From assembly GCF_988242995.1 (NCBI RefSeq), contig NZ_OZ547043.1: DNA of 64,000 nucleotides; one strand, 5' to 3'. The notes beneath the pieces were generated by a model. The model did not search any database and was not told the origin of the DNA. It worked only from the letters and a program-made list of their open reading frames with translations. Below are positions 7,271 through 52,229 of the stretch, one piece after another (the first letter of the stretch is position 1; each line of letters starts with the position of its first letter). A program made the translations under genes and the position numbers.

Positions 7271-7357
7271 TGGTACCCGGAGCGGGACTTGAACCCGCAC
7301 AGCGCGAACGCCGAGGGATTTTAAATCCCTTGTGTCTACCGATTCCACCATCCGGGC
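7271..7357 (-). tRNA. leuZ: tRNA-Leu (UAA anticodon type)
   Basis: Reverse complement matches the 87-nt tRNA-Leu, with the extended variable arm and 3' end GGGTACCA. Confidence 0.9.
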
Positions 7358-7369
7358 TCGGGAAGAAAG

Positions 7370-7443
7370 TGGAGGCGCGTTCCGGAGTCGAACCGGACTA
7401 GACGGATTTGCAATCCGCTACATAACCGCTTTGTTAACGCGCC
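7370..7443 (-). tRNA. cysT: tRNA-Cys (GCA)
   Basis: Reverse complement matches GGCGCGTTAACAAAGCGGTTATGTAGCGGATTGCAAATCCGTC...CTCCA. Confidence 0.9.
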
Positions 7444-7497
7444 AAATTCTTCAGGCCTTTCAGCCAGACATCCGCTTGAGGCCGATGTCTTTTAAAC

Positions 7498-7573
<76 letters not shown>

Positions 7574-39370: not shown

Positions 39371-39457
39371 AAATCCCGACCCTGAGGGGGTCGGGATGAA
39401 ACTTGCTTAAGCAAGAAGCACTTAAAAAATTCGTTACACCAGGAAATCTGATGTGTT
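39371..39457 (-). ncRNA. dsrA: DsrA small regulatory RNA (Hfq-dependent; rpoS activator / hns repressor)
   Basis: Reverse complement reads AACACATCAGATTTCCTGGTGTAACGAATTTTTTAAGTGCTTCTTGCTTAAGCAAGTTTCATCCCGACCCCCTCAGGGTCGGGATTT, matching DsrA including its terminator hairpin. Confidence 0.9.
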
Positions 39458-46594: not shown

Positions 46595-47290
46595 TTATCC
46601 CGCGGGTGAAAACGCATCTATCACCTTGTGATCGACACCTTCATTCTCCCCCGCCAGTTCGGCACTGAGCTTCGCCATAAACTCGACTAAAAAATGCGCG
46701 TTGTGCTGCGCCAGCTGCTTGCCTCTTGCGGTTTGCATGGTTTGCGGTAGCTTCAGCAACTTAGTCTGGAAATGATCCAGCGCGTAGCGTTTATCATCAA
46801 GCGGGCGATGCTGTGCGAACGGATCTTCACCATCAAACAGCGCCACGCCCAATGCCCCTGAAACGGCAAACACGCGCGCCAGGCCAATCGCCCCCAGGGC
46901 TTCCAGCCGATCCGCATCCTGGACGATTTTAGCTTCCGTTGTTAAGGGGGCGATTTGCGCGCTGAAACTGTGAGCGGCAATGGCATGACAAACGGCCTCG
47001 ATTTTCTCCGCCGGAAATTGCTCGAACTCTTCACGGAGCAGGCGACGCGTCTCTTCTGCCGCCAGGATTGAAGAACGCTGCCTTTGCGGATGATTTTTCG
47101 CCAGGCTCACAATATCGTGAAAATAACAGGCGGTTAAAATCACCAGCATATCGACATCGTCATCTGCCGCCAGCTTCTGTGCCGTAGCCCAGACGCGGCG
47201 AAAATGACACACGTCATGGGCCGCGTCCTGGTGCTGATGATGGTTTTTCAACCAATTTTCGAACTGTGCCTGCCAGTGTTGTAAGTCCAT
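46595..47290 (-). CDS. yedJ: HD-domain phosphohydrolase YedJ
   Basis: 231-aa ORF with HD motif. Confidence 0.85.
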
Positions 47291-47329: not shown

Positions 47330-47713
47330 TTATTCATAGCGTCTGCTACGTGCGGGACGAGGTCGGGTGTACCAGGCAATGCTGCCTAACAATGCCCCGA
47401 CCAGAGCCATAAATAAAAATCCGACCAGTGCCCCTAACCACTTTCCCGCGGTAGAGCCTAAATCGCTTTCAAATCCCGACACGGGGGCATCGGGGATCCG
47501 GCTCATCACCCAGATGTAACGCGCCATTGCCCAGACGAAATAGCCACACCATGTATAGAAAGCCCACAAAGCCAGTTTGCCGCCAGGGCTGCGAGAGAGT
47601 CTCTCTTCCATCTTTGTCGAACCGTATTCCATTTTGAGATAACCCGGAAAATTCAGACTTAGTACTATTATGTGATAAAAGTCACATTTTTCCACATTGG
47701 ATGAGCCAGTCAA
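47330..47713 (-). CDS. yedR: inner-membrane protein YedR (start codon uncertain)
   Basis: 127-aa ORF containing the recognised YedR sequence ...MEERLSRSPGGKLALWAFYTWCGYFVWAMARY... Confidence 0.7.
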   Translation of the reverse strand: MTGSSNVEKCDFYHIIVLSLNFPGYLKMEYGSTKMEERLSRSPGGKLALWAFYTWCGYFVWAMARYIWVMSRIPDAPVSGFESDLGSTAGKWLGALVGFLFMALVGALLGSIAWYTRPRPARSRRYE

Positions 47714-47861
47714 GACTCACTCATTTTTTGAACAAATAGATAATTTTTGCGCAACGGCAGTGAATACAGGAAAAATCGTTTTGAGCGATTTTATTTATCT
47801 TTGATATCGGCTTTATTAATTCATTTAATCAATATATTAGCACTGATTACAATTATACCTT

Positions 47862-47949
47862 TTTATTATTCTGTGTCATGATGCTTACGTTATTAGCCTT
47901 TTATCGTCTTGTTTATATTTTTTGGGCCGGCATGATGCCGGCTTTTTTT
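47862..47949 (+). ncRNA. rseX: candidate RseX-like small RNA (5' end approximate)
   Basis: Intrinsic terminator gccggcat/gatgccggc plus T7 run at 47926-47949 with no ORF upstream; I recall RseX mapping between yedR and the yedS porin in K-12 (position and strand from memory, not verified). Confidence 0.35.
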
Positions 47950-48260
47950 ATACCTTCATTAATGTGCGCGTGATCACACCAAGTGTTTAGCGCAACAATC
48001 ATTGATACTCCCTATCTTTCCGCTTAACTCATAACATATTGATATACATTTATAATTTTCATGAATATTTATATTTGGAATTCATAATTCTGAATTATAT
48101 TAAATAGATTAGAAACATTTTGAAATCTTTTAAATACATTTGTTACATGTAATCCTTAAAATAAAATGAACTTCATAGAATAGTATCCAAATGTGCTTTT
48201 TTTTGGATAACGGCACTTATTGATATATTCATGAAGATTATAATCACAAGGGAATACATA

Positions 48261-49319
48261 ATGAAAAGAAAAGTTCTGGCAATGCTGGTCCCGGCGTTAT
48301 TAGTTGCTGGCGCAGCAAATGCGGCTGAAATTTATAATAAAAATGGCAATAAACTGGATTTGTACGGCAAGATGGTTGGTGAGCGCATTCTGACCGACCG
48401 TGAAAATGGTGAAAAAGGCGATAATTCTCAAGATACCTCTTATGCCCGTGTAGGCGTGAAAGGTGAAACTCAGATCAACCCTGAATTGACTGGTTACGGT
48501 CAGTTTGAACTAGACCTGGAAGCATCAAACAGACACAACCCTGACCAAACTCGTTTGGCTTATGCTGGTTTGAGTTACAAAGATTTTGGTTCATTCGACT
48601 ATGGTCGTAATGTCGGTGTCGCGTATGATGCAGAAGCATTTACTGATATGTTTGTTGAGTGGGGCGGTGATTCATGGGCTGGTACTGACCTGTTCATGAC
48701 CAACCGTACCAACGGTGTTGCAACCTATCGTAACACAGATTTCTTTGGCATGGTTGAAGGTCTAAATTTTGCTCTGCAATATCAGGGTAAAAATGAAGGT
48801 ACAGGCAACTACAAAGCAAATGGCGATGGCCATGGTTTATCTGTAACTTACACTATTGACGGTTTCTCATTTGCTGGTGCTTACGCAAACTCTGATCGTA
48901 CTGATTTCCAGTCTAGTGATAGTAAAGGTGAAAAAGCAGAAGTTTGGGCACTGTCAACAAAATATGATGCCAACAACGTCTATGCTGCTGTGATGTACGG
49001 TGAATCTCACAACATGAATTCCGACGACGGTGATGTTGTGAACAAAACACAAAACTTCGAAGCTGTTCTGCAATATCAGTTCGACTTCGGTCTGCGTCCA
49101 TCCATCGGTTACTCCTATTCTAAAGCACTGGACGTAGCAGGTTACAAAGATTCTGATCGTCTGAACTACATTGAAATCGGTACCTGGTATTACTTCAATA
49201 AGAACATGAACGTATATACCGCTTATCAGATCAACCTGCTTGATAAGAGTGATTATGTTCTCGCTCATGGACTGAACACCGACGACCAACTCGCATTTGG
49301 TATCGTCTACCAGTTCTAA
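48261..49319 (+). CDS. yedS: general outer-membrane porin, OmpC/OmpF/PhoE family (yedS-type), apparently intact
   Basis: ORF track 48231..49319; start moved to MKRKVLAMLVPALLVAGAANA signal peptide; ends with the porin C-terminal ...VYQF; single uninterrupted 352-aa frame. Confidence 0.85.
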   Translation: MKRKVLAMLVPALLVAGAANAAEIYNKNGNKLDLYGKMVGERILTDRENGEKGDNSQDTSYARVGVKGETQINPELTGYGQFELDLEASNRHNPDQTRLAYAGLSYKDFGSFDYGRNVGVAYDAEAFTDMFVEWGGDSWAGTDLFMTNRTNGVATYRNTDFFGMVEGLNFALQYQGKNEGTGNYKANGDGHGLSVTYTIDGFSFAGAYANSDRTDFQSSDSKGEKAEVWALSTKYDANNVYAAVMYGESHNMNSDDGDVVNKTQNFEAVLQYQFDFGLRPSIGYSYSKALDVAGYKDSDRLNYIEIGTWYYFNKNMNVYTAYQINLLDKSDYVLAHGLNTDDQLAFGIVYQF

Positions 49320-49362
49320 TCAGCCAACGCGCCGCGGCGTGTTACTGTAAAACTTAACACTA

Positions 49363-49398
49363 GCCTGAGTTCGTCCCTCATCGAACTCAGGCTTTTTT
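49363..49398 (+). terminator. rho-independent terminator of the porin gene
   Basis: gcctgagttcg...cgaactcaggc followed by tttttt. Confidence 0.6.
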
Positions 49399-49911
49399 AT
49401 TGGCATTTTATCTCCCTCTGCGGCACGCGCAATTGCCAAAGCATATCGATACAGTACCTTACCCTGCCCCTGCTGGCACAATAACATCTACCAGCGACTC
49501 ATCCAGCCAACACTCCAAATACATTTCTTTATGAATTAACCCGCAACAAACACGCCTCCCATATAGAAATTTTTGCAAAAAAAGTGCATGGAAAAAGCTT
49601 TTTCTCTACCAATCCGCGATATAAATATTCATCAGTACCACAATATTTCACAGCACTAAATCTCTCCCCGCCGCCCCGTACCTTTGATAATGGTCTAAAA
49701 TCATTGAGGCCACTTGCGACGACGTTGCTCAATAAGGAAAATTTGGCGTGAATAATATTCAACACCAGTGCAGCATCATCATTACATACTTACACCCGCC
49801 GACTACCGCTTTCGATATATTGACTCAATTTTCCAGACTGGTTAAAAATAGCGACCAGCTCAGTCGCAAATATAGTGACTACCCTAACTAAGCAACAATA
49901 AGGAATACACT

Positions 49912-50763
49912 ATGACTGTTCAAACAAGTAAAAATCCGCAGGTCGATATTGCTGAAGATAATGCATTCTTCCCTTCAGAATATTCGCTTAGCCAATATAC
50001 CAGTCCCGTCTCTGATCTTGATGGCGTGGACTATCCAAAACCGTATCGCGGTAAGCATAAAATTCTGGTGATCGCCGCGGACGAACGTTATTTGCCAACC
50101 GATAACGGAAAACTGTTCTCGACCGGTAACCATCCGATTGAAACGTTGCTGCCGTTGTATCATCTCCATGCTGCAGGTTTCGAATTCGAAGTGGCGACCA
50201 TTTCCGGTCTGATGACCAAGTTTGAATACTGGGCTATGCCGCACAAAGATGAAAAAGTAATGCCATTCTTTGAGCAGCATAAATCGTTGTTCCGCAATCC
50301 GAAGAAACTCGCGGATGTTGTCGCCAGCCTCAACGCTGACAGCGAATATGCAGCAATCTTTGTTCCTGGTGGTCATGGCGCACTTATTGGTTTACCAGAA
50401 AGCCAGGACGTAGCTGCTGCTTTGCAGTGGGCAATCAAAAATGACCGTTTTGTTATCTCCCTTTGCCACGGCCCGGCGGCTTTTCTGGCGCTTCGCCACG
50501 GCGATAACCCACTGAATGGTTATTCCATTTGCGCATTCCCAGACGCCGCAGACAAACAAACGCCAGAGATAGGCTATATGCCGGGTCATCTCACCTGGTA
50601 CTTCGGCGAAGAGCTGAAGAAAATGGGCATGAACATTATTAATGACGACATCACCGGGCGAGTACATAAGGACCGTAAAGTTCTCACCGGCGACAGTCCT
50701 TTCGCAGCGAATGCGTTGGGTAAACTGGCGGCGCAGGAAATGCTGGCAGCTTATGCGGGTTAA
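49912..50763 (+). CDS. hchA: Hsp31 glyoxalase / protein deglycase
   Basis: 283-aa DJ-1/PfpI-family ORF recognised as HchA. Confidence 0.95.
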   Translation: MTVQTSKNPQVDIAEDNAFFPSEYSLSQYTSPVSDLDGVDYPKPYRGKHKILVIAADERYLPTDNGKLFSTGNHPIETLLPLYHLHAAGFEFEVATISGLMTKFEYWAMPHKDEKVMPFFEQHKSLFRNPKKLADVVASLNADSEYAAIFVPGGHGALIGLPESQDVAAALQWAIKNDRFVISLCHGPAAFLALRHGDNPLNGYSICAFPDAADKQTPEIGYMPGHLTWYFGEELKKMGMNIINDDITGRVHKDRKVLTGDSPFAANALGKLAAQEMLAAYAG

Positions 50764-50870: not shown

Positions 50871-52229
50871 TTAATTTCTTTGCGGTAACATAATCCGGAA
50901 CACATTATGCTTATTGAGATAGTGATACGTAGCACTTCCCCCATGTAATTCGGCAATCGCTTTGACTAAAGAAAGACCAAGTCCCTGACCTACGGAATGA
51001 CGCGAATTATCTCCCCGCCAAAATCTACGGAAGAGTTTTTCAGGCTCATGAATTTTCGTTCCAGGACTGGCGACATCAATATTAAGATAGCCGTTGGTAT
51101 CAAGAAAACTGGTTATCTCAATACGCGATTTTTCTGGTGAATATCTAATGGCATTAACAATAAGATTCGATAACATTCGTTGCAGTAAAATTTTATCCGC
51201 AAAGATTTGCTGATTGCACTCGACCTTAAAGCAAATCTCTTTCTCGTCTGAAAGGTATTCAAGATAATCCAACAAATTTTCGACTTCCTTATTGAGAGAA
51301 AGCGAGTCCAGTTTCACCAAAACATTGTTTTTATCTGCCCGGGCAAGAAACAGTATGTTCTCTGTTAACCGCGAAATATTTTCCAGCTCTTCAATGTTAC
51401 CGGCAATTGTTTTTTGATATTCAGCGATACTTCTGGTTTGACTGAGCGTAACCTGATTCTGACCCAGTAATGCATTAATGGGCGTTCTAAGTTCATGAGC
51501 GAGATCGTCAGCAAATTGACTTAGGCGTTCAAAATCTTTGACTAAAGCATGATGCATTTTATTCAACGCCTGCCCAAGAGGTTTTAGTTCTCTCGGTAAT
51601 GCGCTAACCTCAACAGGCTCCCGGCTATCGTTATAATTCAGCGCTTCCGTTACACCACTCAACTTTTTGATCTCTCGTAACCCCGTTCGGATTAACAGCG
51701 GACTTAATACTGAGCACAGTATAATGGCGACAATGCAAATTATAATGCTATTGATTTTATACTGTTCAAGCATGTTATGTCTGGCTGAAGCCAATTTAGC
51801 CACAGTAACCGTTAATGATGGCGAAACTTCATCAATATTAATTCGTAAAGCATCTATCTCTGTATCATTAATAATGCTTCTGTAAATGCCAGCTGCGCTG
51901 ATTGTCTCACTAGCAGGTATGTTATTTAACATGCCATCACTGACATTTGTCCGGTTAACAATTTTATTGATGCTATCACCATGAATGATCAAGATATCCT
52001 GACTAACATCCATCATCCGGTTAAAGTACACAGGTAACGTATCTGGATTTACCCCATCAATTAACAACTGCTTGATCTGTGCTGTCCGGTTAATGAGTGT
52101 TGTATCATCGCGCCATTTCAACTCACTTGCCAGGCCATTATAGAGAGTCCAGACAATTCCAGCACCAGCAACAGACAGTAGCAATATAAAAAGCAAGGTT
52201 AAACGGACGGTTATAGACAATCTTTTCAT
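50871..52229 (-). CDS. hprS: sensor histidine kinase HprS (YedV)
   Basis: 452-aa ORF with TM, HAMP and HisKA/HATPase regions (HELRTP). Confidence 0.9.
   Translation of the reverse strand: MKRLSITVRLTLLFILLLSVAGAGIVWTLYNGLASELKWRDDTTLINRTAQIKQLLIDGVNPDTLPVYFNRMMDVSQDILIIHGDSINKIVNRTNVSDGMLNNIPASETISAAGIYRSIINDTEIDALRINIDEVSPSLTVTVAKLASARHNMLEQYKINSIIICIVAIILCSVLSPLLIRTGLREIKKLSGVTEALNYNDSREPVEVSALPRELKPLGQALNKMHHALVKDFERLSQFADDLAHELRTPINALLGQNQVTLSQTRSIAEYQKTIAGNIEELENISRLTENILFLARADKNNVLVKLDSLSLNKEVENLLDYLEYLSDEKEICFKVECNQQIFADKILLQRMLSNLIVNAIRYSPEKSRIEITSFLDTNGYLNIDVASPGTKIHEPEKLFRRFWRGDNSRHSVGQGLGLSLVKAIAELHGGSATYHYLNKHNVFRIMLPQRN

Follow-up and report, generated by a model that had tools for sequence, protein, structure and literature searches.

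The yedS slot holds an intact porin gene

The window analysed here is a stretch of 64,000 nucleotides from contig NZ_OZ547043.1 of RefSeq assembly GCF_988242995.1. At 48261-49319 (+) it contains an uninterrupted open reading frame for a porin of 352 amino acids, which begins with MKRKVLAMLVPALLVAGAANA|AEIYNK and ends in GIVYQF. The gene is flanked on one side by vsr/dcm (up to 46528, -), yedJ (46595-47290, -), drpB/yedR (about 47330-47640, -) and the small RNA gene rseX, and on the other by hchA (49912-50763, +) and hprS (50871-52229, -). This order, dcm-yedJ-drpB-rseX-porin-hchA-hprS, matches that of K-12 and of other annotated E. coli genomes, and by its position between drpB/rseX and hchA the porin gene is yedS.

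An alternative in-frame ATG at 48231 would extend the product from 352 to 362 amino acids; the start equivalent to 48261 is the one chosen by PGAP in an identical gene, and a Shine-Dalgarno sequence, AAGGGA at 48248-48253, lies 7 nt 5' of this ATG and fits it well. The coding sequence is identical to RefSeq entry WP_000824370.1 ("porin"), found in strain SCU-106. As judged from the alignment with OmpC and OmpF, the first 21 residues, MKRKVLAMLVPALLVAGAANA (48261-48323, +), form a signal peptide, which is unchanged across the seven other E. coli alleles compared, with a single change directly past the cleavage site in strain 4848. The remainder (48324-49319, +) encodes a mature protein of 331 amino acids plus the stop codon, for which the Pfam profile, PDB sequence matches and an AlphaFold2 model indicate a 16-strand beta-barrel whose surface loops are short and whose C-terminus reads VYQF. 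The preliminary description had reported an open frame of this length with a signal peptide and a terminal phenylalanine, all of which we find. A strong intrinsic terminator identified by the terminator scan follows at 49362-49400 (+), with a stem of 12 bp that includes 7 GC pairs and a T-run. With a Shine-Dalgarno sequence and a terminator of its own, the gene is predicted to be a monocistronic unit 3' of rseX.

RseX and an AT-rich region precede the gene

What had earlier been noticed just upstream as an sRNA-like terminator is the 3' end of RseX, on which Rfam and the terminator scan agree. RseX, including its intrinsic terminator, occupies 47860-47949 (+) and matches RF01401 over its full length (1-94) with 96.8 bits at a gathering threshold of 50; its terminator consists of a stem at 47924-47944 followed by a T-run. 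K-12 rseX (b4603) is annotated at the same relative position, and the window copy differs from it by one substitution and one terminal T fewer. RseX is an Hfq-dependent sRNA that represses ompA and ompC, and its detection in K-12 has been achieved only once the repression by H-NS and StpA was lifted (PMC8313858; PMC7648144). Sub-threshold Rfam matches to STnc430, RyhB and MicX were set aside as chance matches driven by terminators.

The stretch between rseX and the porin gene (47950-48260, +), which holds the regulatory sequences and the 5'UTR of the latter, is AT-rich. Over the whole of 47600-48300 the GC content is 22-35%, versus 50-58% in dcm and yedJ, a composition that would suit the binding of H-NS, as in porins of the OmpS1/OmpS2 type. 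A pattern search revealed two putative CRP sites. The first, TGTGATAAAAGTCACA, is a perfect consensus palindrome between drpB and rseX (47671-47686, +), and its sequence is among the in-vitro CRP sites of K-12 (PMC12871828); the second, with one mismatch, lies between the RseX terminator and yedS (47963-47978, +), and the same source assigns its K-12 equivalent (2033766) to yedS as a further in-vitro CRP site. The sole promoter-like match near the porin gene in the consensus scan is a weak sigma-70-like one, TTGTTA-16-TAAAAT at 48140-48167, and promoter-like sites in the upstream region are not in excess of those in shuffled sequences. MicF is said to have been named as a regulator of YedS by Warner and colleagues. 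For both MicF and RseX, the duplex energies with the translation-initiation region of yedS (-45 to +30) were no better than those of mononucleotide shuffles (z = +0.65 and +0.78, respectively); the positive control, MicF with ompF, gave z = -4.4, and for RseX the test is insensitive, because the known RseX-ompC pair was not significant either.

The codon bias of the porin gene is moderate, with an ENC of 44 versus 29 for ompC and 37 for ompF, and by this value and its GC content of 43% the gene is nearer to phoE and ompN than to ompC. As background, ompS1 of Salmonella is a quiescent porin gene that H-NS keeps silent and LeuO switches on (PMC4264507), and yedS, which has been equated with ompS1, drops along with other porins upon sigma-E induction (PMC2731931). 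The AT-rich upstream region, the CRP sites, the weak promoter, the codon usage and GC content, and the published silencing of rseX and ompS1 thus suggest a conditionally expressed reserve porin.

A predicted general porin with the constriction charges of OmpF

The protein matches the Pfam family Porin_1 (PF00267) with 368.4 bits (cut-off 23.7; E = 5.5e-110), residues 27-352 covering all of profile positions 1-337 of 337. Its closest PDB sequence matches, all full-length, are OmpK35 (E = 3.4e-132), PhoE and OmpF. Against the more specific NCBIfam models, of which those for OmpF and PhoE are equivalogs and that for OmpC is a subfamily model, it scores 413.2 bits for OmpF (NF007446; cut-off 583), 409.4 for PhoE (NF007544; cut-off 599) and 390.8 for OmpC (NF007841; cut-off 484). 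As these scores stay under all three curated cut-offs, the porin is not an orthologue of OmpF, PhoE or OmpC.

An AlphaFold2 model of moderate confidence, built from an alignment of 37 sequences (pLDDT 74, pTM 0.74), has 16 strands and an internal, partly helical loop L3 at residues 115-151, and the surface loops L4 to L7 of the porin are short. Loop L3, the eyelet, is encoded at 48603-48713 (+) and was assigned by alignment to OmpF D113 and E117; it carries the motif TDMFVEWGGDSW. The alignment places the acidic eyelet residues D129 and E133 at OmpF D113 and E117, and the basic cluster K37, R63, R98 and R149 at OmpF K16, R42, R82 and R132. Thus, all six charges of the OmpF constriction zone are retained, with substitutions at P116 (to V), F118 (to W) and Y102 (to V), and the eyelet motif reads VEWGGDSW versus PEFGGDT. 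At the position of the PhoE selectivity lysine, in the column of OmpF G131, the porin has an asparagine. The profile match, the modelled barrel, the aligned charges, the signal peptide and the terminal phenylalanine together place the protein in the family of general bacterial porins of the OmpF/OmpC/PhoE type.

The window porin and K-12 YedS represent different lineages

The counterpart in K-12 MG1655 (b4496, NC_000913 2034051-2035243) is annotated as a pseudogene, labelled "frameshifted; internal stop" by PGAP, and our own translation locates a TAG at codon 162 and a single frameshift near nt 662. The fragmentation of K-12 yedS, which the preliminary description had noted, is therefore real; the window gene, for its part, is free of frameshifts and stops. 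That description had further taken the window gene for an intact porin of the yedS type. This stands insofar as K-12 yedS is its positional counterpart, but the window gene is not the intact version of the K-12 gene: the reconstructed K-12 YedS, of 397 amino acids, is 45 residues longer and shares 62% of its residues with the mature window protein, compared with 73% with OmpN and 68% with OmpC. Since the resemblance between the two is below that of K-12 YedS to OmpN, we rule out that the window porin is a repaired K-12 yedS, or a sequence orthologue of the b4496 product, and by their sequences the two porins are assigned to different lineages.

The divergence is confined to the mature protein. 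Between K-12 and the window, the stretch from drpB to nt 69 of the coding sequence, which takes in rseX, the promoter region and the 5'UTR, is 97-100% identical, with one short dip to 88% at 47959-48018; taken together, the 640 nt upstream and the first 60 nt of the coding sequence are 97.9% identical. In the codons of the mature protein, identity ranges from roughly 30 to 85% per 60-nt bin, with 66% for the core DNA, and after the stop codon it returns to about 94-95%.

Several alleles share the locus

In the annotated genomes that we sampled, the yedS locus occurs in at least five allele forms of 352 to 404 amino acids, with 54-90% amino-acid identity between forms. They fall into two deep groups with 59-62% identity between them. 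Group I, with the eyelet motif VEWGGDSW and the further signature motifs GKMVGERI and GTWYYFNKNMNVYTAY, comprises the 352-residue allele of the window, SCU-106 and Nissle 1917, hereafter allele A, a 357-residue allele in strain 6409 and a 371-residue allele in ST131 and enteroaggregative E. coli (EAEC) 042. Group II, with the motif PEFGGD, is OmpN/OmpC-like and of the K-12 type; it comprises a 397-residue allele in strain 4848 and a 404-residue allele in S42. Intact group II proteins of 395-405 residues are very many, and some of them carry the name "yedS" or "outer membrane protein S1". A match in UTI89 (H72) was rejected as an allele of this locus, as it is a prophage-type porin at a different locus, adjoining yedK. 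The annotation pipelines are inconsistent in naming the alleles, calling them either "porin" or "porin OmpC".

To gauge frequencies, each variable core was compared by megablast with 5,426 complete E. coli genomes, frameshifted copies being counted along with intact ones. The core of the window type is present at 95% identity or more in about 1,165 of them, including Nissle 1917, ATCC 25922 and 536, and is covered over at least 80% in 1,140 of these (~98%). For the 357-residue type, 743 genomes reach at least 95% identity, and some 600 more have at least 80% coverage at lower identity, among them the variant of the ST131 type, which is about 87% identical. The K-12-type family is covered to at least 80% in 1,662 genomes. 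In the protein collection, the 90% cluster of the window type has 2,356 members. An intact porin is thus what E. coli normally has at the yedS locus; the exceptions encountered were K-12 and O157:H7.

A divergent cassette behind a common promoter

Compared with the other alleles, the identity profile and the lists of mismatches delimit an allele-specific divergent cassette at 48330-49304 (+), the first mismatches lying at 48330-48342 and the last at 49296-49304. Outside it, in the promoter, the 5'UTR, the signal peptide and the downstream DNA, the alleles are 92-100% identical. Within it, identity between alleles is 61-75% in the strands and 66-83% in the periplasmic turns, and drops to 29-39% in the extracellular loops; in loop L1, 0 of 10 positions are identical.

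Flanks and cores have separate histories. Nissle 1917 (allele A) and ST131 (the group I allele B') are 98.7% and 97.3% identical in their two flanks and 70.6% identical in their cores, versus 97.1% core identity between the window and Nissle with flanks of 94.8% and 92.3%. The relatedness of the flanks thus tracks the strain background rather than the type of allele, and this decoupling from the core indicates that the cassette has been exchanged by recombination.

Discussion

What can be said about the role of the porin encoded in the window? The reading that we favour, to which we assign a probability of about 0.8, is that of a functional general-diffusion porin of the trimeric type, which represents the common allele A of a multi-allelic yedS (ompS1) locus and is probably expressed conditionally. 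The protein would be exported through its standard Sec signal peptide and inserted into the outer membrane by the BAM machinery, which would engage its C-terminal YQF. There, it would form a barrel of 16 strands, with the pore narrowed by loop L3 and lined by OmpF-like acidic (D, E) and basic (K, R, R, R) residues. Its expression is probably conditional, with silencing by H-NS at the AT-rich upstream region, by analogy to the adjacent rseX and to Salmonella ompS1, and it would serve as a reserve porin rather than as a major one. Different lineages would carry very different mature cassettes behind one promoter and signal peptide, distinguished mostly in their surface loops, a pattern that fits recombinational exchange together with selection by phages, colicins or antibodies.

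A more sober scenario is that the gene is a cryptic relic, never expressed, which by chance is still intact and is heading for the fate of its K-12 counterpart. Precedents exist at the very same locus: K-12 yedS has a stop and a frameshift, O157:H7 has a frameshift, and IS elements interrupt alleles that are identical but for the insertion, IS2 in NT1F10 (100% identity) and IS1 in EH08-18-36. The locus is therefore dispensable, having been inactivated in some lineages. The moderate codon bias and the adjoining RseX, undetectable in wild-type K-12, point in the same direction. However, 20 synonymous and 9 non-synonymous changes separate the window and Nissle copies of allele A, which corresponds to a dN/dS of 0.12; hence, purifying selection maintains the allele. 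Nor does decay by chance agree with the ~98% of allele A genomes that align over most of the core without interruption, with the retention of every pore and assembly motif, or with the presence of intact alleles of each class in the sampled lineages. Moreover, a clinical isolate with a functional YedS phenotype has been reported (Warner et al., 2013, as cited in later papers). We thus consider a relic unlikely.

We are equally reluctant to see in the cassette a recent import, in which the porin of a foreign genus would have taken the place of the native yedS through homologous recombination in its conserved ends. In favour of it are sharp boundaries at the stop codon and at the junction with the signal peptide, a GC content of 43%, lower than that of the flanking genes, and an identity of just 69-71% to all other alleles at the locus, in E. 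coli or elsewhere. Yet a low GC content (43-46%) is common to all alleles at the locus, and a donor is not in sight: matches above 76% identity all come from E. coli or metagenome contigs, the best named match outside E. coli is from K. oxytoca at 69%, and among named organisms other than E. coli no donor of allele A was found above about 70% identity. Furthermore, allele A occurs in several backgrounds and has diverged internally by about 3% (window versus Nissle, 536 and ATCC 25922), which argues for a long residence in E. coli.

The nearest named proteins from other species, in Klebsiella oxytoca (69-71%), Citrobacter and E. fergusonii (70-71%), are found at the equivalent place. In K. oxytoca and E. 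fergusonii the porin gene directly follows yedJ(HD)-drpB, and in Citrobacter it follows yedJ, with no drpB gene called there; dcm lies just upstream in the Citrobacter and K. oxytoca loci, and vsr takes this place in E. fergusonii. Because of this position, we regard the three as positional orthologues of group I, from which the window allele is about as distant (69-71%) as it is from the other group I alleles of E. coli. RseX was detected in the E. fergusonii locus and was not detected in the Citrobacter and K. oxytoca loci examined. E. fergusonii also carries a second porin in tandem, but the idea that the two groups arose by differential loss from an ancestral tandem pair of groups I and II was not supported, as the second porin is of the NmpC/Lc-like type and not of the K-12 type; it has a different signal peptide and is 89% identical to the UTI89 porin adjoining yedK.

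That the protein is instead a substrate-specific or anion-selective channel of the PhoE kind is very improbable, as the near-equal scores for the NCBIfam PhoE and OmpF models (409 and 413 bits) and the PhoE structures among the top PDB matches are outweighed by a score far under the PhoE equivalog cut-off of 599, an asparagine in place of the selectivity lysine, and an identity to PhoE of just 55-58%.

If the window gene is thus taken as a functional, conditionally expressed porin, how did its locus come to be so diverse? One could tentatively envisage yedS as a long-lived, multi-allelic surface cassette, with two deep lineages that recombine across E. coli backgrounds, presumably under balancing selection by phages, colicins or antibodies; from the sequence patterns at hand we would not yet expect this to be the likelier course of events. 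Should it be true, allele A would constitute a functionally uncharacterised type of porin, with a VEWGGD eyelet, minimal loops, and permeability and receptor properties of its own. In any case, given the strong differences between alleles in the surface loops, strains probably differ at yedS in their phage and colicin receptors and in antigenicity.

Much of this is not new. The window gene is an ordinary and already known one, with a RefSeq entry, a common allele, and published reports on YedS and on a distinct porin lineage. Warner et al. (2013, AAC 57:1935), as cited in later papers, link a functional YedS to carbapenem susceptibility in a carbapenem-resistant clinical isolate. Chaudhuri et al. 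(2010, PMC2808357) described a further, "phylogenetically distinct porin" in EAEC 042, which some pathogenic E. coli have and others lack; by the order of locus tags, and as the sole porin of 042 not otherwise named, Ec042-2121 is presumably its yedS-locus gene. The yedR-yedS intergenic region serves as a host-source marker, and a Shiga toxin-producing strain has yielded a putative porin of 50% homology to K-12 YedS. What our analysis adds is the identification of the upstream element as RseX, the distinction between the lineage of this allele and that of the K-12 pseudogene, and the cassette-like structure of the alleles.

While its significance is modest, and nothing about it is unexpected for an enterobacterial porin, the gene may matter in practice. 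In clinical strains that have lost OmpF and OmpC, beta-lactams and carbapenems can regain entry through a third or fourth general porin, and the loss or repression of such a porin can then raise resistance, as reported for YedS. The effects on antibiotic permeability and on the repertoire of phage receptors that the preliminary description had envisaged are plausible. Since K-12 has no functional yedS, experimental work and the models of outer-membrane permeability built on K-12 largely miss this porin.

How does the window porin compare to its better-known relatives? With OmpF/OmpK35, PhoE and OmpC, to which it is 54-58% identical, it has in common the predicted fold, a signal peptide, AEIYNK at the N-terminus, the residues of the constriction zone and YQF at the C-terminus; however, its loops L4-L7 are shorter than those of OmpC, and P116 and F118 in the eyelet are replaced by V and W. 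K-12 yedS sits in the same slot, drpB-rseX-[porin]-hchA, but encodes the L3 motif PEFGGDTY in place of VEWGGDSW. Closer in descent is the 371-residue allele of EAEC 042 and ST131, which is intact, is annotated plainly as "porin", lies at the yedS locus in 042, and belongs to the same deep lineage; it is nevertheless only 70% identical to the window porin and has longer loops L6 and L7. The orthologues in K. oxytoca, Citrobacter and E. fergusonii are all of the window type in their VEWGGD motif and their length of 351-361 residues. Finally, Salmonella OmpS1, for which StpA is a silencer beside H-NS and OmpR an activator beside LeuO, and which we liken to the window porin on the strength of its description in the literature, provides the model for the proposed silencing, while its name goes with the K-12-type alleles of group II.

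Upstream and Downstream Flanks of the Porin Gene

The spacer that separates the RseX terminator (stem at 47924-47944) from the promoter region of the yedS-locus porin gene (48261-49319, +) is nearly identical among strains, with the exception of a short segment at 47959-48018. Compared with seven other E. coli strains, this segment carries a small cluster of substitutions found in the window alone, such as AAG at 47982-47984 instead of GCC. Its identity drops to 88% over the 60-nt bin, even in the comparison with strain SCU-106, despite an identical porin coding sequence.

The Rfam family STnc430 yields a sub-threshold match antisense to the RseX terminator (47913-48006, -; 28 bits versus 47), and this match probably stems from the bidirectional hairpin of that terminator. 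The further RNA genes of the window, STnc490 (146 bits), DsrA (102 bits) and five tRNAs, located at 17944-18067 (-), 39371-39457 (-), 7274-7573 (-), 57548-57634 (-) and 58626-58698 (+), are all expected in this region of E. coli. Immediately 3' of the porin gene, and overlapping its terminator, lies a 55-aa open reading frame on the minus strand (49320-49487), in which no known domain was found and which may be an annotation artefact. A small minus-strand 'hypothetical protein' is annotated at a similar place in strain 6409 and in EAEC 042.

Alleles and Other Porin Genes in Related Strains

Disrupted copies were encountered at the yedS locus of several strains. In the O157:H7 strain 7386WT, frameshifts are annotated in both drpB and the porin gene (locus L010, 332-612 and 1263-2449), in EH08-18-36 an IS1 resides within a porin allele of the 357-aa type (match H121), and in NT1F10 the allele is broken by IS2 (L004, 4460-5688). 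Apart from this insertion, the NT1F10 allele is 100% identical to the window across 1.8 kb.

In E. fergusonii (GCA_002965935.1; L016, 5663-8688), a second porin gene and a TrkH-family gene separate the yedS-type porin gene from hchA. This second porin is NmpC/Lc-like, comprises 369 aa and shares 89% identity with a porin of UTI89. The latter, an intact NmpC-like protein of 360 aa (L011, 697-1779), is annotated as 'porin OmpC', and its gene is flanked by yedK and ybcM, a locus distinct from yedS. The label 'ompC' is given by PGAP to several non-orthologous porins.

CRP-Consensus Sites around rseX

In the window sequence, rseX (47860-47949, +) is flanked on either side by a CRP-consensus palindrome, one perfect (TGTGATAAAAGTCACA, 47671-47686) and the other with 1 mismatch (47963-47978). 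The whole window holds 5 CRP-consensus sites, versus about 2 expected by chance. The K-12 counterparts of both flanking palindromes are in-vitro CRP sites in a Footprint-seq preprint (2026; PMC12871828).
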